NCBI GenBank assembly: GCA_016865895.1
Contig: VGNY01000002.1
Span: forward strand, 1-51,765
DNA: 51,765 nt
Direction: 5' to 3'
Source of the DNA: Chloroflexota bacterium
GTDB taxonomy: Bacteria > Chloroflexota > Dehalococcoidia > GIF9 > UBA5629
The translations under genes and the position numbers were made by a program. The notes below the pieces were generated by a model. The model did no database searches and had not been told where the DNA came from. It saw only the letters and a list, made by a program, of their open reading frames with translations. Positions 6,972-25,665 of the stretch are shown here, piece after piece. The first letter of the stretch is position 1; each line of letters starts with the position of its first letter.

Positions 6972-7436
6972 TCAAATAGGCTCAAAATACTCGATATCGC
7001 GGATATCCCCCTCAGGTTTATCCCTCCATTTAGCCCTCACCGTCATGCCAATCTTGATTTTATCTTTTGCTTTTTCAATGTTGGAGAGATCCACGCCGCC
7101 GATGAAATGAGATATTGCAGTATCGGCACCATCCAAATCTATCAACCCTGCTATGTACGGGGGCTCCATAGGCTGCCCGGAAAATTCAAAGGTAATCAGT
7201 GACCAAGTCTTTACTTTACCCTTGTCGCTCACTTGAACCCACTCTGTAGCATCCTCAAAGCAGCGAGGACAAAACTTCCTGGCCGGAACAAGCACACGCT
7301 TACACTTAGGACACTTAGTTCCCATTATTCTCTTATTTTTAAACTCTTCAAAAAACCTAGTGATTACCGGGCCCATTGCCCATCTGTAGGGCAACGCAAT
7401 CTTTCCTTCTATAATTCTTGATTCCGCTTTTGCCAT
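6972..7436 (-). CDS. DUF35 Zn-ribbon/OB-fold acyl-CoA-associated protein
   Basis: CPKCKRVLVPARKFCPRC zinc ribbon followed by an OB-fold-sized C-terminus. Sits downstream of two thiolase-fold genes. Confidence 0.85.
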   Translation of the reverse strand: MAKAESRIIEGKIALPYRWAMGPVITRFFEEFKNKRIMGTKCPKCKRVLVPARKFCPRCFEDATEWVQVSDKGKVKTWSLITFEFSGQPMEPPYIAGLIDLDGADTAISHFIGGVDLSNIEKAKDKIKIGMTVRAKWRDKPEGDIRDIEYFEPI

Positions 7437-7450: not shown

Positions 7451-8617
7451 TTATAATTGACTGCCAATAATCATAATTCCATTAAGCTGGTCCATCCCGC
7501 CCATAGCATGGGCAAGAGCTGTCCTGGCTCCGGGTATCTGGCGTTCGCCAGCCCTACCAGTTACTTGCAACGCTGCTTCACCAACTCGAATCAACCCTGT
7601 GGCTCCTATGGGGTTAGTACACAAAACACCTCCAGAAGGTGTGCAGGGTAATTCACCGCCTCTCAAAACAACACCATCTTCTACAAGTTTGCAGCCTTCG
7701 CCAAAGTCGCAAAAACCAAAGCACTCGTAAAAGATAAGCTCTTGATAAGTAAACGGGTTATATACTTCGGCGACATCGAATTCTTTTCGCGGATTTGTAA
7801 TGCCCGCCATTTTGTAGGCTTCCTTTGCTGCGATAATGGCTGATTCCCAGACTACCTTGTCACTATCACCAAAAAAGGCTTCATCGCCAGCATAACCAAG
7901 ACCCTTTACCCAAGCTGCCTTTTTCGGAAACCTTTTTGCCTTTTCCTCACTGGCAAAAATGACAGCACAAGCCCCATCTGAAGAGGGACAAACGTCCATC
8001 AGCCTCGTTGGATAAGCGATAATCCGCGATTTCAGCACATCTTCAACTGTAATTTTCATCCTAATATGGGCATAAGGGTTATCCAGAGCATTATCATGAT
8101 GGTTGACAGAAATGCGGGCTGCTGCCTCCCTCACCCTTTCGTCTGGCAAATTATATCTGTGAGCATACTGGATAGCTTGCATGCTAAAAATACCGGGGGC
8201 TCCAGGAATAAAAGGTCTCTGGAAGAAGGGTTCAGCTACAGTGTTCATAGTCCCTTGAGGGTCACTTTCAAACATCTTTTCAGTTCCCACTGCCATTACG
8301 ACATCAAAAAGTCCTGAAGCTACATGATAGAAGGCGGAATGGGCAACAGACATCCCCGTGCTACCACATGTAGCTATATGCATTAACGGTCTGTCTAAAG
8401 CTGCCATGGCACCTGATAGATACAGATGGGCAGCATTTATGCCTTCCATTGCCGAAGGCATAGATGAATGAGTCACCGCTTCTATATCTTCAGGCGAAAT
8501 GCTGGCATCCTCCAGAGCTGCTTTTACCGCCTCGTAAGCAAGTTCAACATAATTAACGTCTTCCCTTCGTCCGTGTTTGGTCTGCCCGACTCCTATAATA
8601 GCTACTGCTCTCGCCAT
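7451..8617 (-). CDS. SCPx/archaeal-type thiolase-fold protein (Cys retained, GHP His replaced)
   Basis: AIIGVGQTKHG N-terminus. HIATCGSTG at the nucleophile site. PSGGVLCTNPIGATG where GHP is expected. Confidence 0.85.
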   Translation of the reverse strand: MARAVAIIGVGQTKHGRREDVNYVELAYEAVKAALEDASISPEDIEAVTHSSMPSAMEGINAAHLYLSGAMAALDRPLMHIATCGSTGMSVAHSAFYHVASGLFDVVMAVGTEKMFESDPQGTMNTVAEPFFQRPFIPGAPGIFSMQAIQYAHRYNLPDERVREAAARISVNHHDNALDNPYAHIRMKITVEDVLKSRIIAYPTRLMDVCPSSDGACAVIFASEEKAKRFPKKAAWVKGLGYAGDEAFFGDSDKVVWESAIIAAKEAYKMAGITNPRKEFDVAEVYNPFTYQELIFYECFGFCDFGEGCKLVEDGVVLRGGELPCTPSGGVLCTNPIGATGLIRVGEAALQVTGRAGERQIPGARTALAHAMGGMDQLNGIMIIGSQL

Positions 8618-8630: not shown

Positions 8631-9770
8631 CTATTTACCTAGAATGACTACGGAGTGATGTTGCCCGGCAAAGCCATAAGTAGCATGTGCCAGTGCTGTT
8701 TTCACACTGGACACTTGTCTTTTTTCGGCTTTGCCCATCACTTGAAGAGCGGCCTCAGCAATTCTAAAAAGCCCCCTGGCGACATATGGATTCATAGCTA
8801 AAAGACCACCGGATGGATTAACAGGTAGCTCACCATCCATAGCAGTAACTCCGCTATCTATTAGTTTTGCCCCTTCGCCATCTTTGCAGAAGCCTAATTG
8901 CTCATACCACAGGAGTTCCTGAAACGAATAGGGCTCGCAAATCTCCGCCACATCTATCTCTTTTCGTGGGTTCTTAATGCCAGCCATATCATAAGCCTTC
9001 TTAGCTGTTTTTCTCAGCACACCATCAAGCAAGTCCCTGTCACCAAAGAATTGATGGTCAACGCACCAACTGACCCCTTTAACCCATGCCGGATTTTTGG
9101 TTAACTTCTTCGCCTTTTCCTCAGATGCCAGAAGCATAGCACAAGTGCCATCAGAATATGCCGCACAATCTAATGCCTTTATCGGATGTGCCATAACCTG
9201 TGACATCAGAACCTCATCAATAGTAACCTTTCCCGCCTTTTGAACATAAGGGTTATTTATGGCATTGCCGAGATTTTTCACCACTACCTTTGCCGCGTGT
9301 TCCTCAGTTATTCGGTACTTCTCCGTATACAGTCTTGCTTGCATAGCTGCCGCGGAGATATCATCAAGCGCAATCGGACGCTGGAAAAAAGGGTCAGCAT
9401 ACAGATTGGTCAATGTGCTTAAGCTTGGAATCTCGGATGACTTGGTTATGGCATGAACTAAGGCATTATCGAAATGCCCGCTCATCACCCTCATCAGTCC
9501 ATAGATAAAACCTGCGGCACCATCTTCCGAGGCTTTGGAGGTGTCTTTCAGATAAGCTCCTATAGCATCTAGGTAATAGGTATTGGAGCAACTAATACCC
9601 TGCCAGAAGTCTGAAGAGGAAGAAATGATTGTGCCCAGCTTTTCACGTTTCATGCCAACCTGATTTAGTACATCTTTGGTTACTTCATAACTCAGATCCC
9701 GAATGTTTTTGTTTAAAGCATCGTTATGTCCTATCTGGGCAACGGCCACAATGGCTACTCTATTTGCCAT
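8631..9770 (-). CDS. thiolase-like protein lacking the nucleophile Cys
   Basis: Same fold and length as the neighbour. SKASEDGAAG at the nucleophile position (Ser) and AMNPYVARG instead of GHP. AAGGAGG RBS. Confidence 0.8.
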   Translation of the reverse strand: MANRVAIVAVAQIGHNDALNKNIRDLSYEVTKDVLNQVGMKREKLGTIISSSSDFWQGISCSNTYYLDAIGAYLKDTSKASEDGAAGFIYGLMRVMSGHFDNALVHAITKSSEIPSLSTLTNLYADPFFQRPIALDDISAAAMQARLYTEKYRITEEHAAKVVVKNLGNAINNPYVQKAGKVTIDEVLMSQVMAHPIKALDCAAYSDGTCAMLLASEEKAKKLTKNPAWVKGVSWCVDHQFFGDRDLLDGVLRKTAKKAYDMAGIKNPRKEIDVAEICEPYSFQELLWYEQLGFCKDGEGAKLIDSGVTAMDGELPVNPSGGLLAMNPYVARGLFRIAEAALQVMGKAEKRQVSSVKTALAHATYGFAGQHHSVVILGK

Positions 9771-9878
9771 GATACCACCTCCTTATGTTTTAATATCCGA
9801 AGCAAGCGGTTTTATTACAGCAATTGCTACGCGTTCCCAACTTGATTGCTGGTCACCCTCTTTAAACTGCCACATGTT

Positions 9879-9907
9879 AATATACTCGCCACTGCCCTGA
9901 TTGTCAA
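9879..9907 (-). promoter_or_regulatory. promoter TTGACA-N17-TATATT for the thiolase/DUF35 operon
   Basis: Read on the minus strand: -35 at 9902-9907 and -10 at 9879-9884, with an exact 17-nt spacer. Confidence 0.5.
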
Positions 9908-9933
9908 TGGGCACAAAGCACAATGGGCACAAA
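9905..9933. repeat. two perfect 13-bp direct repeats CAATGGGCACAAA (candidate operator)
   Basis: Copies at 9905-9917 and 9921-9933 lie exactly between the two back-to-back -35 boxes. Confidence 0.7.
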
Positions 9934-9937
9934 CATA

Positions 9938-9966
9938 TTGACAATCCTCAGAAAGTCAAGTATATT
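9938..9966 (+). promoter_or_regulatory. promoter TTGACA-N17-TATATT for the carboxylase operon
   Basis: -35 at 9938-9943 and -10 at 9961-9966, with an exact 17-nt spacer. This mirrors the minus-strand promoter. Confidence 0.5.
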
Positions 9967-10091
9967 TAAGAGTCGAGAAAATCCCCAATATTTCGCCTTA
10001 TTAACAATGTGCCAATTCTCAAACAACTTGCTCACAGGTCTCTCCTAATGCAGAGCTTGGATTACTATAAAGGCTAATTCACCAATTTTAA

Positions 10092-11450
10092 GTGGGTTCT
10101 CGCATGCTCAAATCTATACTAATCGCTAACCGTGGGGAAATTGCACGGCGGATAATCAGGACAGCCAAAACACTAGGCATCGAAACCATAGCCATACATT
10201 CTGATGCAGACGAAACGGCTCTGTTTGCCCAGGAAGCAGATAAAGCTATAAGAGTTAGCGGCGCTAAACCTAGAGACTGTTACCTTAATATTGACAATAT
10301 TATTGGAATAGCCAAAGAGGTGAAAGCAAGTGCCATACACCCCGGATATGGATTCTTATCAGAAAGGTGGGAATTCGCCCAAAGATGTGAAGAAGAAGGC
10401 CTCATATTCATTGGACCAAAGTCTGAGGTAATCCATAGAATGGGCGACAAAGCTCGCTCCCGAGAAATAGCTACCAGCCTGGGTATACCGATCCCACCAG
10501 GGAGTGGCATCTTAGGCAGTATTGAAGAGGCAAAAGAATGGGCAGCAAAACTTTCCTTTCCTGTCATTTTCAAGGCATCAGCTGGAGGTGGAGGCATAGG
10601 CATGCAAAAGGTGGAAACAATGGAAGAGGTAGCAGAAGCATTCGAACAGGCTTCAAATCGGGCTAGATTGGCTTTCGGCGACGACAGAGTCTACATCGAA
10701 AAATATTTAGAGTCACCTCACCACATAGAAATCCAAATTCTGGGTGACAAAAACGGTGATGTGGTCACCTTTCCCGAAAGAGAATGTTCGGTGCAAAGAC
10801 GGCATCAAAAAGTAATCGAGGAATCACCCTCACCTTTCGCCACCACTGAGCTAAGAATGGGACTCAGGCAAGCAGCTAAAAGACTAGCTCAAGAGCTTGG
10901 ATATACCAATGCCAGTACTGTAGAATTCGTCGTCGACAAAAACCGAAACTTCTACTTTCTGGAAATAAATACCAGGCTTCAGGTAGAGCACCCTATTACG
11001 GAGATGATAACAGGCCTCGACCTTGTGGAACACCAAATCAAGATTGCTTCTGGCAGGCCCTTATCAATTGGGGAAAAGGACATCAAATGGAAGGGATGGG
11101 CCATTGAAGCTCGAATTTATGCTGAGGACCCGGAAAACTTCTATCCCTCCCCAGGCAAGCTAATCTCCTATGTAGAGCCTCATGGTGATGGAATAAGAGT
11201 TGATTCTGGCTACAAGGCCTGTGACACCATCAGCCAGTTTTACGACCCTCTGATTGCCAAGCTAATCGTTTGGGGTGCAGATAGAGACAAAGCTATAACG
11301 AGAATGCTAAAAGCTCTAAATGATTATGAGATCACTGGCATTAAAAACAACATCCTCTTCCTGAAGAAAGCTTTTGATTCCGCAATGTTCAAATCGGGAA
11401 CTTACGATACACATTTCATATCAAGGTTAAAGGAGATGAAAAATGGGTGA
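10092..11450 (+). CDS. accC: biotin carboxylase subunit of an acyl-CoA carboxylase
   Basis: ILIANRGEIARRIIRT, ATP-grasp loop GGGGIGMQKV and EINTRLQVEHPITE. An alternative ATG start lies at 10104. Confidence 0.9.
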   Translation: MGSRMLKSILIANRGEIARRIIRTAKTLGIETIAIHSDADETALFAQEADKAIRVSGAKPRDCYLNIDNIIGIAKEVKASAIHPGYGFLSERWEFAQRCEEEGLIFIGPKSEVIHRMGDKARSREIATSLGIPIPPGSGILGSIEEAKEWAAKLSFPVIFKASAGGGGIGMQKVETMEEVAEAFEQASNRARLAFGDDRVYIEKYLESPHHIEIQILGDKNGDVVTFPERECSVQRRHQKVIEESPSPFATTELRMGLRQAAKRLAQELGYTNASTVEFVVDKNRNFYFLEINTRLQVEHPITEMITGLDLVEHQIKIASGRPLSIGEKDIKWKGWAIEARIYAEDPENFYPSPGKLISYVEPHGDGIRVDSGYKACDTISQFYDPLIAKLIVWGADRDKAITRMLKALNDYEITGIKNNILFLKKAFDSAMFKSGTYDTHFISRLKEMKNG

Positions 11451-13014
11451 CGTGATGAGAAAGGAAGTTGAAAAACTTTCAGAACTCCGCGAGGAAATCA
11501 AAAAGATGGGCGGTGAAGCAGCCGTCAAAAAACATCACGATAGAGGAAAGCTGACTGCTCGGGAGCGACTGGACCTCCTAATTGAAAAGGGAACTTTCGT
11601 TGAAGTCGGCATGCTCGGGAGCGAATTCGGGGTACCTGAGCTTGTCCCTGCCGATGGATGCATTACCGGCTATGGCAAACTGAATGATGGAGTTACTCTC
11701 AGGGATGTAGCTGTGGCAGCCTACGATTTCACAGTAAGAGGCGGCTCCATGGGCATAACCAACGAGACCAAGGTAACCAGAATACGAGAAATCGCTCTTA
11801 AGCAGAGGATTCCTATGATATGGCTGAGTGACTCCGGGGGTGCCAGAGTAAGCGGTGGAGGCCTTTCCGGTGAAAGAATACCACTGTTCGCTGATTCCGG
11901 CTACCTCTTTAAGGAAGAATCGCTGATGTCCGGCATAATCCCGCAGATTTGCGCTATGATGGGACCAGGATATGCTGGTACAGCCTATATCCCAGGGCTT
12001 TCCGATTTTGTGCCCATGGTCAAGGGAACTAGCTTTATGGGGCTAGGCGGACCATCTCTTGTAGAAATGGTAATCCACGAGAAACTTACCGAAGATGAGC
12101 TAGGAGGCTCTAAGGTTCATTGCGAGATAAGTGGTTGTGGGGATTTGGAAGTGAAATCAGATGAGGAGTGTATCAAAGCAATAAAGCAGTATCTTGCCTT
12201 CTTTCCCCAGAATTGCGACCAAAAACCACTCCGAAAGGAATGGACCGGAGACCCTGAAGCTTTGATTTCCGGCGGTATATTGAATGTTATTCCGGACAGT
12301 CCTCGAGAAGCTTACGACATGCACGACCTCATAAAATACATAGTGGACGACGGTTACTTTTTCGAAATGAAGCCGAAGTGGGGAAGAAATATCATTGTTG
12401 GATTTGGGAGAATAGCCGGCTATTCAGTAGGATTTGTAGCCAATAACCCTCTTTTCTATGGCGGTGTCATCGATATAGATGCCGCTGACAAAGCCGCCCG
12501 CTTTATCTGGCTCTGCGATGCTTTCAACATACCGCTCCTTTTCATCTCCGATGTCCCGGGCTTCATGGTCGGGTCTAAAGCTGAGAAATCAGGTATTATC
12601 AGACATGGGGCCAAGATGATTCACGCCGTTTCTGAAGCTACGGTTCCCAAATTTACCCTGGTTGCCAGAAAATCCTACGGGGCGGGGTATTATGCAATGT
12701 GTGGTAGGGCTTTCGACCCAGACCTATTGATTGCCTACCCCGGAGCTGAGATATCAGTCATGGGCCCAGAGGGAATGGTGTCTATTTTTGCCAGGAAGCA
12801 ATTAGCGGAGGCCGAAAATCCTCAAGAGATGATAGAGCGTCTTGCCGATGAGATAAGACCACAAATTAACATCCACAAGACAGCCAGATTTGGCATCGTG
12901 GACGACGTTATCGACCCTAGAGAAACCAGAAAAGTCTTGCTCAGAGCTCTCGAGTTTACAAAAGACAAGAGGATATACCGGCATCCCAGAAAACACGGCG
13001 TTTACCCTGTCTAA
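11443..13014 (+). CDS. acyl-CoA carboxylase carboxyltransferase subunit (MCC/GCC-beta-like)
   Basis: GKLTARERLDLL, DSGGARV, PGFMVGSKAEKSGIIRHGAKM and YYAMCGRAF...ISVMG. The ATG overlaps the BC stop, with an AAGGAG RBS. Confidence 0.9.
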   Translation: MGDVMRKEVEKLSELREEIKKMGGEAAVKKHHDRGKLTARERLDLLIEKGTFVEVGMLGSEFGVPELVPADGCITGYGKLNDGVTLRDVAVAAYDFTVRGGSMGITNETKVTRIREIALKQRIPMIWLSDSGGARVSGGGLSGERIPLFADSGYLFKEESLMSGIIPQICAMMGPGYAGTAYIPGLSDFVPMVKGTSFMGLGGPSLVEMVIHEKLTEDELGGSKVHCEISGCGDLEVKSDEECIKAIKQYLAFFPQNCDQKPLRKEWTGDPEALISGGILNVIPDSPREAYDMHDLIKYIVDDGYFFEMKPKWGRNIIVGFGRIAGYSVGFVANNPLFYGGVIDIDAADKAARFIWLCDAFNIPLLFISDVPGFMVGSKAEKSGIIRHGAKMIHAVSEATVPKFTLVARKSYGAGYYAMCGRAFDPDLLIAYPGAEISVMGPEGMVSIFARKQLAEAENPQEMIERLADEIRPQINIHKTARFGIVDDVIDPRETRKVLLRALEFTKDKRIYRHPRKHGVYPV

Positions 13015-13025
13015 GGAGGACTCGA

Positions 13026-13811
13026 ATGTATCAGACTATAACAGTCGAAATAAGAAATAAAGTAGCCACAATAACCCTATCTCGAGAGGAGAGAAGAAAC
13101 GCCATCTCGCCAACGATGATGACCGAACTTTTGGATGTCTTCAAAAAATATGACGATGACCCATCAGTAGTCGCTATCGTGCTGACCGGAGCTGGTAGTA
13201 AGGTTTTCTGCGCCGGTGCTGATTTTGCCGAGTCTATGGGTGCTGCAACAAGTTTCCTTGACCGCTATGAAGGACAAAGAAATTTTGCCGAGCTTTTTAA
13301 GATAATCAAAGGCTTGAAGAAACCTTTGATCGGCCGGATGAATGGCCATGCCCTCGGTGGTGGGCTTGGGCTGGCCTGTGCCTGCGACATAGTAATTGCT
13401 GCCGATGATTGTCTCTTTGGAACACCGGAAATAAACGTGGCGCTATTCCCTTATATTATTATGGCAACTTTAGTTCGCTTCACTTCGACTCCAAAGAGAC
13501 TGCTAGAGATGATGCTTACTGGAGAAAGAATCCCTGCCAAAGAAGCCCAGATGCTGGGCATAGTGAGCCATGTGGTGCCCAGAGAACAGCTGGATGTAAA
13601 AGTTGACGAAATCGCCAAGAAAATAGCCAATAAAAGTCCAGCCATTCTGAGACTCGGCAGAAGAGCCTTCTACACAATGCGAGATATGGAGTATGAGAAG
13701 GCATTAGAATATCTAGCATCGATGCTGGCCATTAATACAATGGCTGAAGATGTAACTGAAGGCATTGCCGCTTTTCTGGAAAAGCGTGAACCAATATGGA
13801 AAGGAAAATAA
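13026..13811 (+). CDS. enoyl-CoA hydratase/isomerase (crotonase) family protein
   Basis: VLTGAGSKVFCAGADF oxyanion-hole motif, GHALGGGLGLACACD and a C-terminal AAFLEKREPIW. Confidence 0.9.
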   Translation: MYQTITVEIRNKVATITLSREERRNAISPTMMTELLDVFKKYDDDPSVVAIVLTGAGSKVFCAGADFAESMGAATSFLDRYEGQRNFAELFKIIKGLKKPLIGRMNGHALGGGLGLACACDIVIAADDCLFGTPEINVALFPYIIMATLVRFTSTPKRLLEMMLTGERIPAKEAQMLGIVSHVVPREQLDVKVDEIAKKIANKSPAILRLGRRAFYTMRDMEYEKALEYLASMLAINTMAEDVTEGIAAFLEKREPIWKGK

Positions 13812-13826
13812 CGGAGAGGAGTAACC

Positions 13827-14699
13827 ATGAGCTTACAGGACAAAGTAGTAATAACTGCGGCTTTGACCGGTGTGGCAGCTAACAGAGACCAATGCAAGTG
13901 GATACCATATACCCCTCAGGAAATTGCTGAAGAGGCACTAAGTGCCTACAACGCCGGGGCTTCGGTAGTACATATTCATGGCAGAGAATATGATGGCCGT
14001 CCGTCTTGGAGAGTGGAGATTTTTAGAGAGATTATGGAAGAGACGAGGAAAAGGTGCCCCATCATAATAAACTTTTCCACCGGTGCTGTAGGCGTAGACA
14101 GGGACAACAGAATCGCTCATATTCGCGAACTGAAGCCGGAGATCGCAGCACTGAATATGGGAACAATGAATTATGCCAAATACAGTCAAAGGCGGAGGAA
14201 CTTCGTCTTCTCGGTTGTCTTCCAGAACCCATTCGATGATATAATGTTCTTTTTGGACACCATGAATAAGAGTGGTGTGAAACCGGAGTGCGAATGCTTT
14301 GACCTTGGGCATTTGGAGAGCGTGTTTCCGCTAATGGACATCGGATTACTCAAGAATTTTGAGGTAAGCCTCATTATGGGGGTGGTTGGGGGTATGGCGG
14401 CTACAGCTAGAAATCTAGCTCATGTGGCCAGTGTGGTACCCCCCGGTGTGCCCTGGCAAGTAATAGGTATCAGCGAGGACCAATGGCTGCTGATAGCTAC
14501 CGCTCTGGCTCTTGGTGGAAATGTCAGAGTCGGACTTGAAGATAATTTTTATCTATCGCCTGGAGAGATGGCACAAGGAAATGGCCCTTTAGTAGAAAAA
14601 GCAGTAAGAATGACACGTGACATTGGCAGAGAGCCAGCGACGGTGGAAGAGGCTAGAACCATTCTGCGGTTGGTAGAAACAACGAGTGGAGATAAATAA
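13827..14699 (+). CDS. BKACE (beta-keto acid cleavage enzyme, DUF849) family protein
   Basis: VVITAALTG...IPYTPQEIAEEA...GASVVHIHGRE at the N-terminus. Its ~290 aa size is typical of the family. Confidence 0.8.
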   Translation: MSLQDKVVITAALTGVAANRDQCKWIPYTPQEIAEEALSAYNAGASVVHIHGREYDGRPSWRVEIFREIMEETRKRCPIIINFSTGAVGVDRDNRIAHIRELKPEIAALNMGTMNYAKYSQRRRNFVFSVVFQNPFDDIMFFLDTMNKSGVKPECECFDLGHLESVFPLMDIGLLKNFEVSLIMGVVGGMAATARNLAHVASVVPPGVPWQVIGISEDQWLLIATALALGGNVRVGLEDNFYLSPGEMAQGNGPLVEKAVRMTRDIGREPATVEEARTILRLVETTSGDK

Positions 14700-14716
14700 C
14701 CTGAGTTAAGCAAACC

Positions 14717-14929
14717 ATGACAGAAGTTGTTTCACCGATCACAGGCAGCGTCTGGAAAATTGTGATAGAAGTTGGTGCACAAGTTGGCGAGGGTGAGACT
14801 ATCGTTATACTTGAATCTATGAAAATGGAAATCCGAGTGAAATCCCCTCACAACGGGAAGGTGGTGGAAATTCGGGTAAAAGAGGGCGATTCAATTCTAG
14901 AAGACGACATTATCGCCATTATTGAGTAG
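14717..14929 (+). CDS. free-standing biotin carboxyl carrier protein
   Basis: 70 aa with a biotinyl-lysine motif (LESMKMEI) in a lipoyl/biotinyl hammerhead-sized domain. Confidence 0.85.
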   Translation: MTEVVSPITGSVWKIVIEVGAQVGEGETIVILESMKMEIRVKSPHNGKVVEIRVKEGDSILEDDIIAIIE

Positions 14930-14961
14930 TAAGCAACCTACTTGTGATATGGAGGGCAAGC

Positions 14962-16152
14962 ATGGACTTTAGATTTACCGAAGAAGAGGAGGCATTTAGG
15001 AAAGAGGTTCGCCAATGGCTGAAACAGGAAATCCCGCCAAGATGGTTTGAACTTGACCCCGGCATGTGGGAGGAAACTGAAGAGTCCTGGGCGATTTCCC
15101 GCCAGTTCCAACGCAAACTTGGGCAGAAAGGCTGGCTGGCACCAGCATATCCCAAGGAATACGGCGGCTTGGAATTGAGCCATACAAAACGGCTCATACT
15201 CGCTGAGGAGATGGCTTACAACAGGGCACCCGTCAGCGTAGAGGTGGAGATAACAGTAAACTGGGTAACCCCCACCATTATGCTTTTTGGAACCGAAAAG
15301 CAAAAGAACGACTATGTAACTCGGGTAGCAAAGGGGGACATTATTTTCTGTCTTGGCTATAGCGAACCAAATGCTGGCTCCGACCTTGCTGCACTCCAAA
15401 CTCGCGCTGTTGAAGCTGGTGATGAGTATGTAATTAACGGCCAGAAGATATGGTGTAGCTATGGCCATTTAGCCGACTATTGCTGGCTTGCTGCCAGAAC
15501 TGACCCAGATGCCCCCAAGCATAAAGGAATCAGTATGTTTGTTGTCGACATGAAGACGCCGGGAATCACCATTCGCCCTCTGGTGAATATCTTGAACCGT
15601 CACTCTTTTAATGAGGTCTTCTTTGATGATGTGCGTATCCCCAAAGATAACTTGGTAGGACAGAAAAACAACGGCTGGTATCAACTAGTTATAGCTTTAG
15701 ACTATGAACGTTCCTCAGTTGGCACCGCTGCAGCACAGCAACGAATCATTGAGGAACTAGTCAAATATGCTAAAGAAACCAAGCGCAATGGGAAACCGAT
15801 TGCCAAAGACCTGCTGATCAGGAATGAATTGGCAGAAATGGCAGTCGAAAATGAAGTCCTCCGCATGATGTGCTATCGCATCGCCTGGATGTACAGCAAA
15901 AACCTTCATCCCAGCTATGAATCGTCAATGGCAATGATTTTTGGCAGCGAAGTAATGAGACGGTTAGCCAACGTAGGTATGCGTATCATGGGACATTATG
16001 GTGAACTTGACAGGGACTCCAAGTGGGCTCCCCTTAATGCTAGGATAATGCGGATGTTTCTATGCTCAGTCTCAATAGGCGTTGGAGGCGGCTCTAACGA
16101 GATTCAGCGCAGCATTATCGCTATGAGAGGTTTAGGGTTACCTCGGCACTAA
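14962..16152 (+). CDS. acyl-CoA dehydrogenase, alpha-type (IVD-like catalytic Glu position)
   Basis: MDFRFTEEEEAFRKEV start at an ATG preceded by GGAGGG (the track ORF begins 18 nt earlier). GYSEPNAGSDLA, LDYERS and GGGSNEIQRSIIA. Confidence 0.9.
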   Translation: MDFRFTEEEEAFRKEVRQWLKQEIPPRWFELDPGMWEETEESWAISRQFQRKLGQKGWLAPAYPKEYGGLELSHTKRLILAEEMAYNRAPVSVEVEITVNWVTPTIMLFGTEKQKNDYVTRVAKGDIIFCLGYSEPNAGSDLAALQTRAVEAGDEYVINGQKIWCSYGHLADYCWLAARTDPDAPKHKGISMFVVDMKTPGITIRPLVNILNRHSFNEVFFDDVRIPKDNLVGQKNNGWYQLVIALDYERSSVGTAAAQQRIIEELVKYAKETKRNGKPIAKDLLIRNELAEMAVENEVLRMMCYRIAWMYSKNLHPSYESSMAMIFGSEVMRRLANVGMRIMGHYGELDRDSKWAPLNARIMRMFLCSVSIGVGGGSNEIQRSIIAMRGLGLPRH

Positions 16153-16187
16153 TCATTGCACACACTAGCTTCTGAAAAAGGACGACT

Positions 16188-17384
16188 ATGGATTTTAGAT
16201 TTAATGAGAAGGAAGAGGCATTTCGAAGAGAGGTCGAGAGTTTCATAAAGACAGAGCTGCCTGCAAATTGGACCGAGAAAAACATCTACTGGCCAGGGGG
16301 ATATGGCACTTTATCAGAATTTGAGGAGGTGAACACTCAAATCGAGCAATTCAGACGTAAGTTAGCCGAGAAAGGATGGCTTACCATCTCGTGGTCTAAA
16401 GAATACGGCGGCGCAGGGCGCACCAATATTGAACAGGCCATCTTCCACGAGCGGATGAGCTATTATAGGGCACCCGGTGGTGAAGTAGCCACACTAATCG
16501 GCGGCCCCACCATCATGCTTTTCGGCAGCGACGAAATGAAGAAGGAATGGCTACCAAGGATAGCCAGAGGAGAGGCGAGATTCTGGCTGGCCTACAGCGA
16601 ACCAAACTCTGGCTCTGACCTTGCTTCTATTCAGACTCGTGCTGTCGAAGACGGTGATGACCTCATTATCAACGGACAAAAAATCTGGGGTACTGCCGCT
16701 CACGTGTCACATTATGCCTGGATGATTGCCAGGACAGACCCTAATGTTGCTCCCCATAGAGGGATTACACTACTCATGGTAGACAACCAATCATCAGGTG
16801 TTACTATCCGCCCCTTGATGAATATATGTGGTACCCACTCTTTTAATGAGGTATTCTTCGATAATGTACGTGTACCCAAAAAGAACATCGTTGGGGAGAA
16901 GAACAAAGGGTGGTATTATGTAATGGTAGCCCTAGACTTTGAGAGGCTTGTAATCCCTATAGGGGGCTTCAAGCGGACCTTCGAAGAGATAACAGAGTAT
17001 GCCAGGGAAACAAAACACAACGGACAACCTTTGACCCAGAATCCTCTAATAAGGAATAAACTAGCTGCGATGGCAATCGAGATTGAAGTAGCCTACATGT
17101 TCTTCTGGCAAACAGCCTGGATGCTTGACAAAGGACTTATCCCAAATATCGAAGCATCTGTGCTAAAGCTGTTTACCACCCAGCTAAGCCAAAAGCTAGC
17201 AAATACCGGGATGCAGGTTATGGGACATTATGGGCCATTAGAAAGGAATTCCAAATGGGCATCCCTAATAGGGAGAGTTCCGGCAGGATACATGGATTGT
17301 ATTTCTGCCCTCGTTGGTGCTGGCACTTCTGAAATCCAGCGAAATATCATTGCCATGAGGGGGCTAGGGCTGCCCCGACCATAG
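16188..17384 (+). CDS. acyl-CoA dehydrogenase, alpha-type paralog
   Basis: Collinear with the previous ACAD: MDFRFNEKEEAFRREV, YSEPNSGSDLA, LDFERL and GAGTSEIQRNIIA. Confidence 0.9.
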   Translation: MDFRFNEKEEAFRREVESFIKTELPANWTEKNIYWPGGYGTLSEFEEVNTQIEQFRRKLAEKGWLTISWSKEYGGAGRTNIEQAIFHERMSYYRAPGGEVATLIGGPTIMLFGSDEMKKEWLPRIARGEARFWLAYSEPNSGSDLASIQTRAVEDGDDLIINGQKIWGTAAHVSHYAWMIARTDPNVAPHRGITLLMVDNQSSGVTIRPLMNICGTHSFNEVFFDNVRVPKKNIVGEKNKGWYYVMVALDFERLVIPIGGFKRTFEEITEYARETKHNGQPLTQNPLIRNKLAAMAIEIEVAYMFFWQTAWMLDKGLIPNIEASVLKLFTTQLSQKLANTGMQVMGHYGPLERNSKWASLIGRVPAGYMDCISALVGAGTSEIQRNIIAMRGLGLPRP

Positions 17385-17434
17385 ATGAAGCCTGAAGTAA
17401 ATTATGTAAACTCATGTAGAATAGGAGGGAAAAG

Positions 17435-18565
17435 ATGGACCTTGGTCTGACTGAAGAACAAGAGATGCTGAAGACATCAGCTCGTGACTTTCTGCAAAAA
17501 GAATGCCCCAAGCAATTGGTCAGGCAATTAGATGAAAGCGACACTGGCTACTCCCCTGAACTGTGGCAAAAAATGGCTGAACTGGGCTGGATTGGGCTGG
17601 TATTCCCTGAGAAATATGGTGGCAGTGGTGGTAGCTTCCTGGACTTGATAGTCCTTCTCGAGGAGATGGGACACAATATATTGCCCGGCCCATTTTTTTC
17701 AACCGTAATTCTCGGTGGTCTTACTATCATGGCAGCAGGAGACGAGGAACAAAAGAAAGAGTTCCTGCCCAAAATTGCCGGCGGTAAGATGCTCCTTACC
17801 TTAGCATTAACAGAGCCCAGTGCCAGCTATGACGCATCGTCAGTGAAGACTCAGGCCGTAGGTACTGACGGATATATTATCAACGGCACCAAATTGTTTA
17901 TTCCTGATGCTAACATAGCTGACCACATACTATGCGTAGCCCGGACAAAAAAGGAAAAGAAACCAGAAGACGGGACCACCATTTTTCTTGTTGATGCCAA
18001 AAGCCCTGGAGTCAAATGTACTCTCCTCAAAACTCTAGCTCGCGACAAACAATGTGAGGTTATCTTCGACAATGTGAGTGTGCCACAAAAGAACATCTTG
18101 GGCAAGCTAGACCAGGGCTGGCCTATAGTAAAACAGGTTCTCCAAAAGGCAACGGTAGCCAAATGTGCTGAGATGGTCGGGGGTGCCCAGGCTGCATTAG
18201 AGATGGCTGTCCAATATGCCAAGGACAGAGTTCAATTTAACCGGCCTATTGGTAGCTTTCAGGCTATCCAGCATTATTGTGCCAACATGGTGACCGATGT
18301 TGATGGTGCACGGTTCATTACATACAAGGCAGCCTGGAAGGTAAGCGAAGAGCTACCGGCTGATATGGATATAGCTATAGCCAAAGCCTGGACTAGCGAG
18401 GCTTGTGGACGGGTTACCCTGTTAGCACATCAGATATTCGGTGCAATTGGCTTTACCATGGACCATGATATACACCTGTATTACAGGCGAGCCAAAGCTG
18501 GTGAGATAATGTTCGGCGACGGCGATTTTCAACGCGCTATCGTAGCCCAAGAATTAGGGCTCTAG
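17435..18565 (+). CDS. acyl-CoA dehydrogenase-fold protein, beta-type (no catalytic Glu seen)
   Basis: ACAD fold (LTEPSASYDASS). It has Ala at the IVD-type base position (LQKATVAKC) and Phe at the MCAD-type position (IMFGDGDFQR). Confidence 0.85.
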   Translation: MDLGLTEEQEMLKTSARDFLQKECPKQLVRQLDESDTGYSPELWQKMAELGWIGLVFPEKYGGSGGSFLDLIVLLEEMGHNILPGPFFSTVILGGLTIMAAGDEEQKKEFLPKIAGGKMLLTLALTEPSASYDASSVKTQAVGTDGYIINGTKLFIPDANIADHILCVARTKKEKKPEDGTTIFLVDAKSPGVKCTLLKTLARDKQCEVIFDNVSVPQKNILGKLDQGWPIVKQVLQKATVAKCAEMVGGAQAALEMAVQYAKDRVQFNRPIGSFQAIQHYCANMVTDVDGARFITYKAAWKVSEELPADMDIAIAKAWTSEACGRVTLLAHQIFGAIGFTMDHDIHLYYRRAKAGEIMFGDGDFQRAIVAQELGL

Positions 18566-18567
18566 CT

Positions 18568-19488
18568 TCACCAGTTCACTTTATTCAGGCCTTTAAGCCC
18601 TAATATCTGCCTTGCCTCATCAGGAGTCGCTGGTTCCAGGCTTAACTCTCGAGCTATGCGCACTATTTTCTCTACCTGGTCAGCATTACTTTTGGCCAAG
18701 ACACCTTTACCAGCATAAAGGCTGTCTTCCATACCAACCCTGGCATTACCGCCCATAACTAGAGACATAGTACACATCGGCATCTGATGGCGGCCAGCAG
18801 CACATACCGACCACACGAAGTCGCCAATTTGCTCTCGAGCGCTGTTGAATAAGTATAGCAAATTACTCGGTGACGCAGGCATACTACCTAGAATGCCTAA
18901 TACGAACTGCAAATAAACAGGCTTCTTAAGATATCCTCTCTGCAGCATAAAAGCTACATTGTTAATCATTCCTGCATCATATATTTCCAGCTCAGGCTTT
19001 GTTTCATTTTCCTCAAAAGCCTGACTGAACTCTCGCAGCGTCTTAAAAGTATTGGCGAAAATGAAATCTTCCGTTCCTTGTAAATACGGTTTCTCCCAGG
19101 GAAATTTAAATTTTCTGACAGCTTCTGCTATAGGGAATAGCCCGAAATTTATTGAACCGAAGTTGAATGATGCCAGTTCTGGCTTAAAAGTTGTCACCCC
19201 CTTCACCCGCTCCGCCGTGGTCATGCCCACGCCACCACCAGTGCTCAAACAAAGAACAATGTTGCACCTGCTCTTCACCTTGGTGACTACCTCCCGAAAC
19301 AACTCCATATCAGAGCTTGGCTGACCGGTTTCCGGATTGCGGACATGGATATGGGCTACTGCCCCACCAGCTTCATACACTCTTACTGCCTCATCAGCAA
19401 TTTGCTGAGGCGTTATCGGTAAGTACGGAGACATGCTGGGAACATGAATGCTGCCAGTAATAGCTGCGGTGATTATAACCTTGCTCAT
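18568..19488 (-). CDS. BKACE (DUF849) family protein, second copy
   Basis: VIITAAITGSIHVPSMSPYLPITPQQIADEAVRVYEAGGAVAHIHVRN. Its stop lies 2 nt from the converging ACAD stop. Confidence 0.85.
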   Translation of the reverse strand: MSKVIITAAITGSIHVPSMSPYLPITPQQIADEAVRVYEAGGAVAHIHVRNPETGQPSSDMELFREVVTKVKSRCNIVLCLSTGGGVGMTTAERVKGVTTFKPELASFNFGSINFGLFPIAEAVRKFKFPWEKPYLQGTEDFIFANTFKTLREFSQAFEENETKPELEIYDAGMINNVAFMLQRGYLKKPVYLQFVLGILGSMPASPSNLLYLFNSAREQIGDFVWSVCAAGRHQMPMCTMSLVMGGNARVGMEDSLYAGKGVLAKSNADQVEKIVRIARELSLEPATPDEARQILGLKGLNKVNW

Positions 19489-19513
19489 AATTCCCCCTTA
19501 TCTTAATCCCCAA

Positions 19514-19702
19514 TGTCATTGCGCGGAGCCCAGCAACGAAGCAATCATCTTCCCTTATCTGTCATTCTGAGCCCCGATAGAATGGGGCGAAGAATCTCAT
19601 CATATCACTATCATTTCCAAGATTCTTCAGTCGCGGAGTTTACCCTCGAGCGTAGCGAAGGGCTTCTTCAGAATGACCTAATGCACAGGGCTCGCAATGA
19701 CA
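19514..19702. repeat. nested palindromic intergenic repeat (GTCATTCTGAG/GAAGAATC family)
   Basis: Outer arms TGTCATTGCG (19514-19523) and CGCAATGACA (19693-19702). Inner arms GTCATTCTGAG (19561) and CTTCAGAATGAC (19666), and GAAGAATC (19589) and GATTCTTC (19621). Confidence 0.75.
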
Positions 19703-19720
19703 GAAAAGTGTGTTAGCAAA

Positions 19721-20515
19721 TCACGCCAGCCAACGTTTCCGCCGCTTGTAATGTTTTACCTCGCGGTAACTTCTCCTCTGCCCTACCTTGCTCAACCCTA
19801 GATAAAACTCCTTTATGTCCTCGTTATCTCTCAGTTTCTCAGCCGGTCCATCCATAACCACGCGGCCATTTTCCATAACATAGCCATAGTTAGCCAGTTC
19901 CAGTGCTGCCCTAGCATTCTGCTCCACCACTAAAATAGAGGTCTTCTCCTCGGTGTTAATCCTTTTCACTATGTCAAAGATTTCTCTTACCAGTATCGGG
20001 CTGAGCCCTAGAGATGGCTCATCCAAAAGCATCAGCTTCGGGCGAGCCATAAGCGCTCGCCCCATGACCACCATCTGCCTCTCACCCCCGGAAAGATAAC
20101 CAGTCGTGGCATGACGCAGGTCTTTCAGCTTTGGAAAATAATCATATACCATGTCCAGGTCTCTTCTTACCCCTGCAGCATCACCACGTGTATAGGCGCC
20201 TACTTTCAATTCCTCATCCACATGCAGGTGCTCGAACATGGGACGTCCCTCCATAACCTGAACGATTCCCAACTTGACCACATCTTCAGGGTTCATCCTG
20301 TCTATTCGCTGGCCATCCCACTCAATGCTGCCATCGGTAACATCGCCTTCCTCTGTATAAAGCAGTCCGGAAATTGCCTTAAGCGTAGTTGTCTTGCCGG
20401 CACCGTTACCACCGAGCAGCGTTACGATACCACCATCAGGCACCTCCAGCGATACTCCCTTGAGCACCAATATCACATTGAGATAGATAACTTCAATATT
20501 GTTCAACTTTAACAT
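19721..20515 (-). CDS. livF: Liv-type ABC transporter ATP-binding protein (LivF-like)
   Basis: Walker A GGNGAGKTT, signature LSGGERQM and Walker B LMLLDEPS, with a basic C-terminal tail. Confidence 0.9.
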   Translation of the reverse strand: MLKLNNIEVIYLNVILVLKGVSLEVPDGGIVTLLGGNGAGKTTTLKAISGLLYTEEGDVTDGSIEWDGQRIDRMNPEDVVKLGIVQVMEGRPMFEHLHVDEELKVGAYTRGDAAGVRRDLDMVYDYFPKLKDLRHATTGYLSGGERQMVVMGRALMARPKLMLLDEPSLGLSPILVREIFDIVKRINTEEKTSILVVEQNARAALELANYGYVMENGRVVMDGPAEKLRDNEDIKEFYLGLSKVGQRRSYREVKHYKRRKRWLA

Positions 20516-20670
20516 GTTGTACCCCTTTTATTATCGTTTCTATAATCGAGACAGGGTGCACCCTATTGTCGCTGTATTTCTCGTCTGTGTCAGGATGTTG
20601 ATAAACAGTATTATATATCTTACACCTATACATAATTTGCATCAAGCAACCATACATGGAAGTCGTTTAT

Positions 20671-20750
20671 CAATGTCATTCTGAGGAGTCCCAACAAATT
20701 AGGGCGCCGAAGAATCTCGGAGATTCTTCGCTTCGCTCAGAATGACATTG
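20671..20750. mobile_element. MITE-like palindromic element flanked by an 8-bp direct repeat
   Basis: 15-bp terminal inverted repeats CAATGTCATTCTGAG (20671-20685) and CTCAGAATGACATTG (20736-20750). Central GAAGAATCTC-G-GAGATTCTTC hairpin. TCGTTTAT at 20663-20670 and 20753-20760. Confidence 0.55.
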
Positions 20751-20787
20751 AATCGTTTATAAACAGTCTCCCTACATACTCGAGGCA

Positions 20788-20820
20788 AAAGGAGAAACCT
20801 CTCGGAAAGGCTTCTCCTTT
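20788..20820 (-). terminator. candidate hairpin terminator after the lipoprotein gene
   Basis: A 12-bp stem (AAAGGAGAAACC/GGCTTCTCCTTT, one wobble) with a 9-nt loop. Only a short U tract on the minus strand. Confidence 0.35.
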
Positions 20821-20866
20821 CCTTACTTCTTTCAGTCTATGTGTCCTCTCTCAGATGTACCCGTGT

Positions 20867-21934
20867 CTACTTCTTGAATTGCAAGGTGTGTACTATCTCT
20901 GAGAACTTGGCTTCGTTGTACGGTGCCAGTAGCTCTACGGTGCCTACTGTAACAAGTATCCACTTGTTGTCTTTCTGCGTACCCAGAGCAAAGGCTTTAG
21001 CCCCAAAACCTCTCAATGTTACTTCAATCGCTGCCGCGGTGGCTTTAGTGCCATCGGCCAGAGTAGTTTCTTTCTCAGAGACAACTTTGAAGCCTGAGCC
21101 ACCAGCTCCTTCAAGTGATTTCTTGAGCGCCTCGGCAAAGGTAGCAGCCTCCTCAGCATCAACAAACAGAACTGGAACCTGGGCCGGCGATGCAGCATAG
21201 AACAGGAGGGTATCAGGAGGTTGCTTTGCCCAATCCTTGGGATATTTGACGGAGAAACCAAGTTCAGCATTGGTGTACTCAGCAGCTTCAAAAGTGAGCT
21301 TGCCTGGCTCGGCTGGTTTCTCTGCAGGCGGCGCCGCTGGCGGTGTCAATTGCAGGTCCCAAGTTGTGGTAGCTACAGCACGCGTATCCTCACCCACAGC
21401 ACGTAGAGTGTAGACAAGGTTCGGCAGTGGATTGCCGAGCGACTTTGTATCGAGTGCCATCGTGGGTAGAAAGTCACCCCGCAACAACCAGTCAACCTTC
21501 GATACTCTTTCCAGTGCCACTTCAAAATTGCCCTGGTCATCGGTGGTGGCAAAGGCAATGCCAACAGCATCTTCACCACGCTCTCTATCGAGCCCTTTCA
21601 TTGCAACATCGGGAGGCACAACCAATTCCACGGTGACTATCTCGTTGGGCTGCCAGCCAGTGCCCTTAAACTTCACCGGTATAGCCAGGATGCCCATTTG
21701 AGGCGGGAGTCCTGCTGCCGCAGCCTCAGGAAGACCCAGGGCCTTGGCAAGTGCTGGCAGTACTCCCTTCAGCATAGCCTGGTCAATTTTGGCTGGTTCC
21801 ACAGTCAGCGTCCCTGCTGGAGGTGGTGGCGGTGGTGGGGGTGGCGCCTTAGGAGCGCAGCCAACTACGGGCAACACCAGAAGTGCCACCATGACTACAA
21901 TAATCAGTGTCTTAAAACTACATATTTTCATCAT
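20867..21934 (-). CDS. lipoprotein with poly-Pro tether and C-terminal PsbP/DcrB-like module
   Basis: Lipobox VVGCAP followed by PPPPPPPPP. The C-terminal 134 aa is roughly 80-85% identical (by eye) to the C-terminus of the binding protein at 34842-36647. Confidence 0.8.
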   Translation of the reverse strand: MMKICSFKTLIIVVMVALLVLPVVGCAPKAPPPPPPPPPAGTLTVEPAKIDQAMLKGVLPALAKALGLPEAAAAGLPPQMGILAIPVKFKGTGWQPNEIVTVELVVPPDVAMKGLDRERGEDAVGIAFATTDDQGNFEVALERVSKVDWLLRGDFLPTMALDTKSLGNPLPNLVYTLRAVGEDTRAVATTTWDLQLTPPAAPPAEKPAEPGKLTFEAAEYTNAELGFSVKYPKDWAKQPPDTLLFYAASPAQVPVLFVDAEEAATFAEALKKSLEGAGGSGFKVVSEKETTLADGTKATAAAIEVTLRGFGAKAFALGTQKDNKWILVTVGTVELLAPYNEAKFSEIVHTLQFKK

Positions 21935-21955
21935 TATTCTGCCTCCTTCCTCCTC

Positions 21956-25664: not shown

Positions 25665-25665
25665 G

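Follow-up and report, generated by a model that had tools for sequence, protein, structure and literature searches.

The closest described counterparts of the system considered here are the bacterial Liu (leucine/isovalerate utilization) and Atu (acyclic terpene utilization) pathways, which follow a common logic: a β-methyl group is carboxylated, the product is hydrated and the resulting molecule is cleaved. The Liu pathway comprises isovaleryl-CoA dehydrogenase (IVD), the alpha and beta subunits of methylcrotonyl-CoA carboxylase (MCC), the methylglutaconyl-CoA hydratase LiuC and the HMG-CoA lyase LiuE (HMG, 3-hydroxy-3-methylglutaryl), whereas the Atu pathway relies on the AtuC/AtuF geranyl-CoA carboxylase (GCC), the isohexenylglutaconyl-CoA hydratase AtuE and a lyase. 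In HMG-CoA lyase, a divalent metal binds HMG-CoA through its C3-hydroxyl and carboxylate groups, and the enzyme releases acetoacetate and acetyl-CoA. Here we analyze an operon in a 51,765-nt stretch of a Dehalococcoidia (Chloroflexota) genome (contig VGNY01000002.1; the entire stretch is referred to as the window). Like the Liu system, the operon encodes an acyl-CoA dehydrogenase (ACAD), a biotin carboxylase, a crotonase with a single catalytic Glu and a terminal enzyme; the joint presence of ACAD, biotin carboxylase and hydratase genes is common to the window and to related loci. It differs in that the place of HMG-CoA lyase is occupied by a member of the BKACE family (PF05853) and in that its carboxyltransferase is not an MCC orthologue. 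We propose that the operon is a Liu/Atu-type module that takes the β-methyl branch off acyl-CoAs and in which this BKACE does the job of HMG-CoA lyase, a reading to which we assign an even chance of being correct.

Two further families have to be considered. Characterized BKACEs, such as Kce (2y7d), BKACE15 (8rio/9hnf) and triacetate acetoacetate-lyase, are TIM-barrel Zn enzymes with acetoacetate and an acyl-CoA as generic products. They hold a β-keto acid on Zn and swap its acyl group with acetyl-CoA, giving acetoacetate and a new acyl-CoA (PMC11961710, PMC10470551). The second family is represented by Rv2498c, a CitE-like beta-hydroxyacyl-CoA lyase that acts as a non-homologous replacement of HMG-CoA lyase in leucine catabolism of Mycobacterium tuberculosis (PMC6689899). 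It provides a precedent for the BKACE proposed here, which would likewise be a non-homologous filler of the HMG-CoA lyase step but belongs to a different protein family.

All eight genes of the operon lie on the + strand (10092-18565). The first five encode a biotin carboxylase (BC, 10092-11450; Pfam Biotin_carb_N, CPSase_L_D2 and Biotin_carb_C), a carboxyltransferase (CT, 11443-13014; Carboxyl_trans, 480 bits), a crotonase that is a putative 3-alkylglutaconyl-CoA hydratase (ECH, 13026-13811; ECH_1, 203 bits), the proposed terminal enzyme BKACE1 (13827-14699) and a minimal 70-aa biotin carboxyl carrier protein (BCCP, 14717-14929; Biotin_lipoyl, with the biotinylation motif ESMKME). They are followed by three ACADs: the alpha-type, PimC-like ACAD1 (14944-16152), its alpha-type paralogue ACAD2 (16188-17384), both assigned by Pfam, NCBIfam and alignment, and the beta-type, PimD/IpdE2-like ACAD3 (17435-18565; NCBIfam and alignment). 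Intergenic distances range from -8 to 50 nt, and no strong promoter or terminator pattern was found inside the operon. A second BKACE gene (BKACE2, 18568-19488, - strand) converges on its end, with the BKACE2 stop codon 2 nt from the end of ACAD3. This gene set, described previously in a sequence-only reading of positions 10092-19488, is corroborated by Pfam and by the map of open reading frames (ORFs), with which its coordinates agree exactly; the motifs that it quoted (YYAMCGRAF...ISVMG, PGFMVGSK, LDYERS and LDFERL) are all present.

BKACE1 and its conserved gene partners

Both BKACE proteins score far above the Pfam cut-off of 24.8 (BKACE1, 312 bits; BKACE2, 350 bits), and both miss the NCBIfam equivalog cut-offs (BKACE1 best 270 versus 382). 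BKACE1 is ~35-40% identical to any solved BKACE, yet in the alignment it keeps the residues of Kce (2y7d) and BKACE15, namely HxH, ExE and R...GxED. Residues H49, H51, R53, E154, E156, R234, E238 and D239 are invariant in 155 members of the BKACE1 clade and in 4 outgroups. By analogy with Kce, HxH and the Glu of GxED presumably are Zn ligands, with Glu, Asp and Arg residues serving in catalysis. BKACE1 looks like a canonical Zn BKACE and is predicted to be catalytically intact; the metal and catalytic residues are common to both BKACE proteins. What sets BKACE1 apart from the characterized family members is its phylogenetic position. In the tree it belongs to a separate, carboxylase-linked clade, distinct from Kce, BKACE15, 3lot and BKACE2, and this clade has invariant residues of its own, including W220 and, in loops that differ from those of characterized BKACEs, A18, N19, Q22, C23, K118 and Y119. 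A protein homologue search with BKACE1 returned only relatives that are at least 81% identical, and the plasmid collection contained no BKACE above 40% identity. We also considered whether a BKACE might activate acetoacetate or use malonyl-CoA, and rejected the idea, as exchange with acetyl-CoA is degenerate.

To see how the gene arrangement is conserved, we collected 80 genome loci by similarity to BKACE1 (L001-L080, 1.15 Mb) and 80 metagenome loci by a scan with the BKACE of an MCC-linked lineage (L086-L165, 0.75 Mb). Canonical liu clusters of Sinorhizobium meliloti (L081) and Acinetobacter (L083) and an atu-like cluster (L082) served as references. The nearest relatives of the locus come from Dehalococcoidia metagenome-assembled genomes of lakes and sediments (82-91% identity), and Dehalococcoidia loci keep the order BC-CT-ECH-BKACE1-BCCP-ACADs. 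The crotonase gene is directly upstream of BKACE1 in all 35 of 35 informative loci and CT is present in 29 of 29, BC in 18 of 23, while BCCP directly follows BKACE1 in 26 of 36. One Dehalococcoidia subgroup has DUF35-thiolase-thiolase-DUF35-CT-ECH-BKACE1-ACADs on a single strand, with no local BC or BCCP. In Actinomycetota the order is ECH...CT...BKACE-BCCP-ECH2 amid housekeeping genes; BCCP adjoins BKACE in 26 of 27 loci, and a CT of the window's clade is found upstream in 15 of 18. The genes located between CT and BKACE in this phylum were examined as lyase candidates and dismissed as unrelated insertions. The second actinomycetotal crotonase, encoded ~200-1100 nt downstream of the BCCP gene in L051, L052, L060, L061, L074 and L080 (e.g. 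L061 11139), lacks both catalytic Glu residues (GxGCQ... and IPS).

Further loci belong to a third, Myxococcota/Desulfobacterota-like lineage with the order CT - BC/BCCP alpha - ECH - BKACE. Here the CT (L047) is a true MCC beta subunit, which reaches 650 bits against Pseudomonas aeruginosa MCC beta and ~250 against propionyl-CoA carboxylase (PCC). In the metagenome loci the crotonase gene adjoins BKACE in 59 of 65 informative cases, and MCC alpha and beta lie upstream in 27 of 31. The usual order there is TetR - ACAD (40-44% identical to IVD) - non-catalytic ACAD - MCC beta - MCC alpha - ECH - BKACE, and a MaoC-SCP2 gene also occurs in these clusters. Compared with L081 and L083, the MCC-linked clusters have the liu operon order with BKACE where liuE, the HMG-CoA lyase gene, sits. 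BKACE1 relatives co-occur with carboxylase genes in Dehalococcoidia, Actinomycetota and the MCC-linked lineage, and the number of environmental genomes with this arrangement is well above one hundred. The suggestion that the genes form one functional unit is upheld by this synteny, kept across three phyla. Moreover, ECH and BKACE occur as a pair with either of two carboxylases that are not orthologous to each other, which argues for a shared type of reaction, γ-carboxylation of a 3-methyl-2-enoyl-CoA, in both of them.

Two kinds of loci depart from these patterns. Some ECH-BKACE-ACAD loci are succeeded, on the opposite strand, by a tandem pair of CT genes (L135 2735-5860, L149 7020-10134 and L150 12733-15847) that belong to the PCC family but are divergent and have degenerate motifs at the active site; they may represent yet another carboxylase partner. 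In the Calescibacteria-like L046, where BKACE is solitary, a crotonase (19239-20027) 59% identical to that of the window is encoded 9 kb away, and this lineage may have dispersed its partner genes instead of lacking them.

BKACE2 does not share the conservation of BKACE1. It represents a different subfamily, 3lot/triacetate-lyase-like (NF053538, 406 bits with a cut-off of 430; PDB 3lot, 355 bits), and is linked to the operon only in L001-L003, L007 and L017. Relatives with 45% identity occur in L020 and L033, and the gene is absent in L034 and L039. The sequence-only reading had put both BKACEs at the place of the missing lyase. In gene order, BKACE1 does hold the liuE position; for BKACE2, linked in a minority of related loci, the case is weak, and we regard this variable protein as an inconsistent accessory.

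As expected from the same reading, no HMG-CoA-lyase-type gene could be found in the window, either by Pfam (no HMGL-like or HpcH/CitE-like domain in ORFs of at least 100 aa) or by tblastn with S. meliloti HMG-CoA lyase. The tblastn search was likewise negative in the 160 related loci (L001-L080 and L086-L165, ~1.9 Mb in total), and Pfam gave no HpcH/CitE match in sampled neighbor genes of these loci.

Carboxylase, crotonase and acyl-CoA dehydrogenases

The MCC/GCC alpha subunit combines BC and BT domains with a fused BCCP. This design is not found in the window, where BC and BCCP are separate small proteins, in contrast to the Liu system. BC is a free-standing protein of 452 aa that has the three BC domains alone, with neither a BT domain nor a fused BCCP according to Pfam. 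It shares 49% identity with the corresponding region of MCC alpha from S. meliloti and matches NCBIfam accC-type models at 504-581 bits, all under their cut-offs; BCCP comes close to the cut-off of PRK05889 (73.7 versus 75 bits).

The CT proved to be the most unusual component. In overall similarity it is closest to archaeal and Thermotoga acetyl-CoA carboxylase (ACC)/PCC beta (456 and 446 bits, respectively, against PDB), followed by bacterial PCC beta (380-393), MCC beta (275), GCC beta (5ikl, 267) and, remotely, GcdA (90). It can be aligned end to end with PCC-type 1x0u and 1vrg, including the tail ...PRKHGVYP of the KHGxYP type, and it has PCC-type GGAR, RK and GIIRHGAK. According to the guideline of Jurado et al. 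(PMC4673880), an extended N-terminal alpha-helix separates MCC/GCC beta from PCC beta. As only 34 residues precede the conserved GKL in the window CT, compared with 51 in MCC beta of L081 and L083, this helix is missing.

The active site tells a different story. The motifs GAG(N/Y)YxMxGRAxxP and GFMVG, present in the window CT, are shared by every MCC/GCC reference and missing from every PCC reference. The PCC-type (R/K)KxYGGAY(D/I)xM is not found; the window CT has RKSYGAGYYAM, sharing GAGY with the CT of the atu-like L082, and where PCC/ACC proteins have the segment YGGAY(D/I)VMxSK, it carries the MCC-like YGAGYYAMCGRA. The oxyanion-hole/specificity segment as a whole reads YGAGYYAMCGRAFDP in the window CT, FGAGNYGMCGRAYDP in MCC and YGGAYDVMASKHVGA in PCC. 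Further MCC-like motifs are IPLLFL and LGGPSLV (LGGPxLV).

We built a CT tree whose reference sequences came from PDB alignments and from liu, atu-like and PCC clusters with annotation; the plasmid collection, which has no CT above 42% identity to that of the window, was a source of canonical reference clusters only. The tree has no outgroup and is unrooted. It falls into three groups, each a bipartition with 100% bootstrap: PCC/ACC, MCC/GCC and the CTs that are linked to BKACE in Dehalococcoidia and Actinomycetota. A bipartition of the same strength separates the window CT clade from the PCC/ACC references, five in number (one archaeal, one from Thermotoga, two alphaproteobacterial and one from Streptomyces). 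Members of the third group are 39-48% identical to PCC/ACC and 34-39% to MCC/GCC, the two being 31-33% identical to each other, and at clade-diagnostic columns the group sides with PCC at 46 and with MCC at 35. The CT therefore appears to be a mosaic, third lineage between PCC/ACC beta and MCC/GCC beta. Its closeness to MCC/GCC, claimed in the sequence-only reading, holds for the quoted active-site motifs and fails for the protein overall, as seen from the bit scores, the short N-terminus, the tail and the clade of its own.

These features bear directly on a rival explanation, namely, that the enzyme is an ordinary alpha-carboxylating acetyl-, propionyl- or acyl-CoA carboxylase, used for the ends of β-oxidation or for making malonyl-CoA, and that crotonase, BKACE and ACADs are merely co-located. 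The top PDB and NCBIfam matches of CT are indeed ACC/PCC/mmdA-type, the N-terminal helix is missing, and we take the three-subunit design to be like that of archaeal ACC/PCC. The alignment also places a bulky Tyr at the specificity position of CT, which is D422 in Streptomyces PccB. In Methylorubrum PCC the residue at this position is D407 (PMC11961710). Nevertheless, we consider this explanation improbable. PCC/ACC beta proteins (1x0u, 1vrg, 6ybp, PccB) share with the window CT the best overall similarity, the short N-terminus, GGAR, GIIRHGAK and the KHGxxP C-terminus, but the CT branches outside them and the active-site motifs of its C-domain, including the oxyanion segment, are MCC/GCC-like. 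Moreover, the genes for CT and BCCP flank those for ECH and BKACE, other loci combine the ECH-BKACE pair with true MCC, and Pfam detected neither methylmalonyl-CoA epimerase nor mutase among the window ORFs. In our reading, CT would perform γ- rather than α-carboxylation.

In BKACE-linked crotonases the first catalytic Glu is replaced by Gly and the second is kept (GGGxG...PE) in every orthologue; the window protein has GGGLG...TPE. AtuE (PDB 4zu2) has nearly the same signature (GGGFGLAC...LPE), and so do LiuC proteins (GGGVG...LTE in S. meliloti L081 and GGGMG...TSE in Acinetobacter L083). Because AtuE and LiuC share this single-Glu signature, we place the window crotonase in the Liu/Atu hydratase class. 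Overall scores are less specific: 108 bits for AtuE, 110 for Myxococcus xanthus LiuC, ~135 for generic enoyl-CoA hydratases and 162 for 3-hydroxypropionyl-CoA dehydratase. The thought that the protein is an unusual HCHL-like hydratase-lyase was dropped, since the first Glu is also missing in AtuE and bacterial LiuC; lyase activity of the crotonase is possible, without specific support.

The IVD-like Glu previously recognized in the alpha-type ACADs is confirmed by alignment: in both ACAD1 and ACAD2 the Glu of LD(Y/F)ER falls in the column that holds the catalytic Glu in bona fide IVDs. ACAD2, which is 51% identical to ACAD1, is missing from many related loci. In ACAD3 a catalytic Glu is missing from both known positions. 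The pattern of one subunit with and one without the catalytic base, also seen in the MCC-linked locus L109, is that of heteromeric alpha2-beta2 ACADs (PimCD, ChsE/IpdE), in contrast to homotetrameric IVD. The best NCBIfam models are accordingly pimC_large and pimD_small/IpdE2, with scores far under the equivalog cut-offs (258 versus 624 and 207 versus 653).

ACADs also provide part of the case for a glutaconyl-type variant, in which crotonyl-CoA or an enoyl-CoA derived from glutaryl-CoA would be carboxylated or hydrated, and BKACE would cleave a 3-oxo dicarboxylate or malonate semialdehyde. They weakly match models of non-decarboxylating glutaryl-CoA dehydrogenase and PimC/PimD, and malonate semialdehyde is accepted by many BKACEs (PMC11961710). 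However, these NCBIfam matches are the ones far below cut-offs, GcdA is the remotest relative of CT and no 3-hydroxyacyl-CoA dehydrogenase is encoded in the operon. Furthermore, methyl-branched substrates are suggested by the linkage to a true MCC in sister clusters. We find this variant highly improbable.

Proposed pathway and its alternatives

According to our proposal, a heteromeric ACAD composed of catalytic ACAD1 or ACAD2 and non-catalytic ACAD3 would produce a 3-methyl-2-enoyl-CoA, whose γ-methyl group would be carboxylated by the three-subunit carboxylase (BC, BCCP and CT). The resulting 3-alkylglutaconyl-CoA would be hydrated by the AtuE/LiuC-type crotonase to 3-hydroxy-3-alkylglutaryl-CoA, and BKACE1 would perform the terminal C–C cleavage or acyl exchange, yielding acetoacetate and an acyl-CoA. 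The likeness to the Liu pathway extends to the IVD position of the ACAD Glu, the LiuC-like GGGxG...E signature and the sister clusters with true MCC. Relative to the Atu pathway, not only does CT differ from GCC beta in the missing helix and low score, but the predicted products are acetoacetate and a shortened acyl-CoA instead of acetate and a 3-oxoacyl-CoA.

In the envisaged BKACE1 reaction, the 3-hydroxy acid moiety would be held on Zn, where BKACEs normally hold the β-keto acid. Cleavage on the CoA side would give acetyl-CoA and R-CO-CH2-COO-, both of which are substrates of the normal BKACE exchange. If R is not methyl, the exchange would convert them to R-CO-SCoA and acetoacetate with no ATP used; if R is CH3, the products would be acetoacetate and acetyl-CoA, as with the classical lyase. 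In this respect it is relevant that a crystal structure of BKACE15 contains both acetoacetate and acetyl-CoA (PDB 9HNF; PMC11961710). As this pair corresponds to the products of HMG-CoA lyase, we count the structure in favor of the proposal. Alternatively, the crotonase or some other enzyme might release a β-keto acid that BKACE1 only converts. Both the retro-aldol chemistry of BKACE1 and the γ-carboxylation are steps that we infer. Candidate substrates would be isovalerate/leucine or longer isoprenoid-type acids: true MCC and the IVD-like ACAD favor the former, while heteromeric ACADs, the MaoC-SCP2 gene and the fully canonical BKACE residues favor the bulkier latter.

A number of observations weigh against our proposal. 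We know of no BKACE that cleaves 3-hydroxy-3-alkylglutaryl-CoA; characterized members act on free β-keto acids and acetyl-CoA. With R = CH3, the BKACE exchange becomes degenerate, so that either new chemistry or a longer substrate is needed. BC and BCCP are separate and lack a BT domain, unlike MCC/GCC alpha, and CT is overall nearer to the alpha-carboxylating lineage in terms of identity, the absence of the N-terminal extension, GGAR, RK, GIIRHGAK and the PCC-type C-terminus. Judging by overall scores, the crotonase is not especially close to AtuE, given its higher score with 3-hydroxypropionyl-CoA dehydratase. The absence of HMG-CoA lyase refers to gene neighborhoods rather than whole genomes, and a lyase may be encoded elsewhere. 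Finally, eight BKACE1 relatives from Calescibacteria and Planctomycetota have no carboxylase within 10 kb, their neighbors being housekeeping genes.

A further rival explanation is a Liu/Atu-like pathway in which an HMGL- or CitE-type lyase is encoded elsewhere, and BKACE1 only recycles a β-keto acid to acyl-CoA and acetoacetate, with no ATP spent. With all canonical residues kept, the cautious assumption is that BKACE1 has the usual chemistry of its family. Heteromeric ACADs together with MaoC-SCP2 hint at bulky substrates that would give a free β-keto acid, and replacement by a CitE-like lyase has a precedent in Rv2498c. On the other hand, HMG-CoA lyase was not found in any of the 160 loci, nor was HpcH/CitE in the window or in the sampled neighbors. 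On balance, we regard this explanation as rather unlikely. The conserved pairing of crotonase and BKACE with a real MCC weakens, but does not eliminate, this rival, its thiolase-like variant considered below and the alpha-carboxylase explanation.

Returning to our own proposal, its most far-reaching form would combine two claims: that members of the BKACE1 clade stand in for HMG-CoA lyase without being homologous to it, uniting retro-aldol cleavage and acyl exchange at one Zn site to turn 3-hydroxy-3-alkylglutaryl-CoA into acetoacetate and acyl-CoA, and that CT is a third lineage performing γ-carboxylation on a PCC-like scaffold. We put forward this combination only tentatively.

Surrounding genes and biological implications

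Immediately upstream, on the - strand, lies an operon encoding a DUF35 protein with zinc-ribbon and OB domains (6972-7436; Pfam zf-ChsH2 and OB_ChsH2_C) and two thiolase-like proteins. The first of these (7451-8617; Thiolase_N and Thiolase_C_1) is of the SCP-x type, matching PRK08313 at 385 bits, below the cut-off; in the alignment it has the nucleophile Cys, while the His of the GHP motif is replaced by Asn. The second (8631-9770) matches only Thiolase_C_1, with 4yzo and BbsB as best PDB hits (~120 bits). It is devoid of the nucleophile Cys and is probably a non-catalytic partner. Judging from these features, the thiolase-like pair with DUF35 resembles BbsAB, PhlBC or Ltp2-type C–C enzymes more than a plain thiolase. 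The DUF35 gene accompanies CT-ECH-BKACE1 genes in Dehalococcoidia loci L002, L007, L009 and L017.

This operon makes conceivable a Dehalococcoidia variant of the lyase-elsewhere explanation, in which the thiolase-like/DUF35 complex would cleave as an Ltp2-like retro-aldolase. The linkage of these genes in Dehalococcoidia loci and the lack of thiolase Cys in one of the proteins are compatible with such a role. However, thiolase and DUF35 genes are absent from Actinomycetota and MCC-linked clusters, in which the ECH-BKACE pair is still there.

The divergent control region between the thiolase and carboxylase operons (9771-10091) contains, as pattern matches, two back-to-back sigma-70-like promoters. 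The pattern TTGACA-17-TATATT is matched at 11 of 12 positions at both 9938-9966 (+) and 9907-9879 (-), the top two matches in 11.4 kb. Between the promoters there is a perfect 13-nt direct repeat, CAATGGGCACAAA (9905-9917 and 9921-9933), and a partial inverted copy of it, TGTGCCAATT, is located at 10008-10017. The repeat region may be an operator common to both operons.

The rest of the window contains LIV-type ABC transporters, acyl-CoA ligases, additional ACAD pairs, short-chain dehydrogenases/reductases (SDRs), thiolases and MaoC hydratases; in the window as a whole, neither the Rfam scan nor the tRNA scan revealed an RNA element. Region 19721-36647 carries three LIV-type transporter sets (Peripla_BP_6, BPD_transp_2, ABC_tran/BCA_ABC_TP_C) interspersed with AMP-binding acyl-CoA ligases. 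It includes a 355-aa ORF (20867-21934) without a Pfam family that is kept beside the operon in L002, L003, L034 and L039. A second CoA-ester operon (36877-45158, - strand) encodes an archaeal-type HMG-CoA synthase fused to DUF35 (NF003274, 223 bits with a cut-off of 244), an acetyl-CoA acetyltransferase (PRK06157, 630 bits), two MaoC-type hydratase subunits, two SDRs and a PimC/PimD-like ACAD pair. The window thus encodes a probable HMG-CoA-forming enzyme, yet no HMG-CoA lyase. In region 45650-51273 a MarR regulator gene precedes those of a nitronate-monooxygenase-like (NMO) protein, a 4Fe-4S dicluster protein and an acyl-CoA ligase, with a further ACAD lacking the MCAD-type Glu on the opposite strand; the region constitutes another uncharacterized acyl-CoA module. 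At the other end (195-6628) there are six ORFs with no or marginal Pfam matches (a weak HTH_23; a purple-acid-phosphatase N-domain in 5117-6094) and no functional relation to the CoA-ester genes.

In the literature that we searched, no paper joins BKACE/DUF849 with MCC, HMG-CoA lyase or leucine catabolism, and none describes BKACE genes linked to those of a biotin carboxylase; the NetSyn analysis of genomic contexts of BKACE mentions no carboxylase. What is new, within a known kind of pathway, is a BKACE at the lyase position together with a third carboxyltransferase lineage. Automatic annotation labels the genes 'acetyl-CoA carboxylase', 'methylmalonyl-CoA decarboxylase alpha' and '3-keto-5-aminohexanoate cleavage protein'.

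If our proposal is correct, catabolism of leucine/isovalerate or isoprenoid acids would end unlike the textbook route in many uncultured bacteria, including lake and sediment Dehalococcoidia, Actinomycetota and a Myxococcota/Desulfobacterota-like lineage, which would explain genomes apparently devoid of liuE. Under the most far-reaching form of the proposal, the two-lineage picture, in which carboxylases of the PCC type are alpha-carboxylating and those of the MCC/GCC type gamma-carboxylating, would no longer hold. CT would be a natural intermediate between the two structural lineages and a test case for the determinants of α- versus γ-carboxylation. The BKACE family, in turn, would gain a role beside a biotin carboxylase and, possibly, a new reaction.

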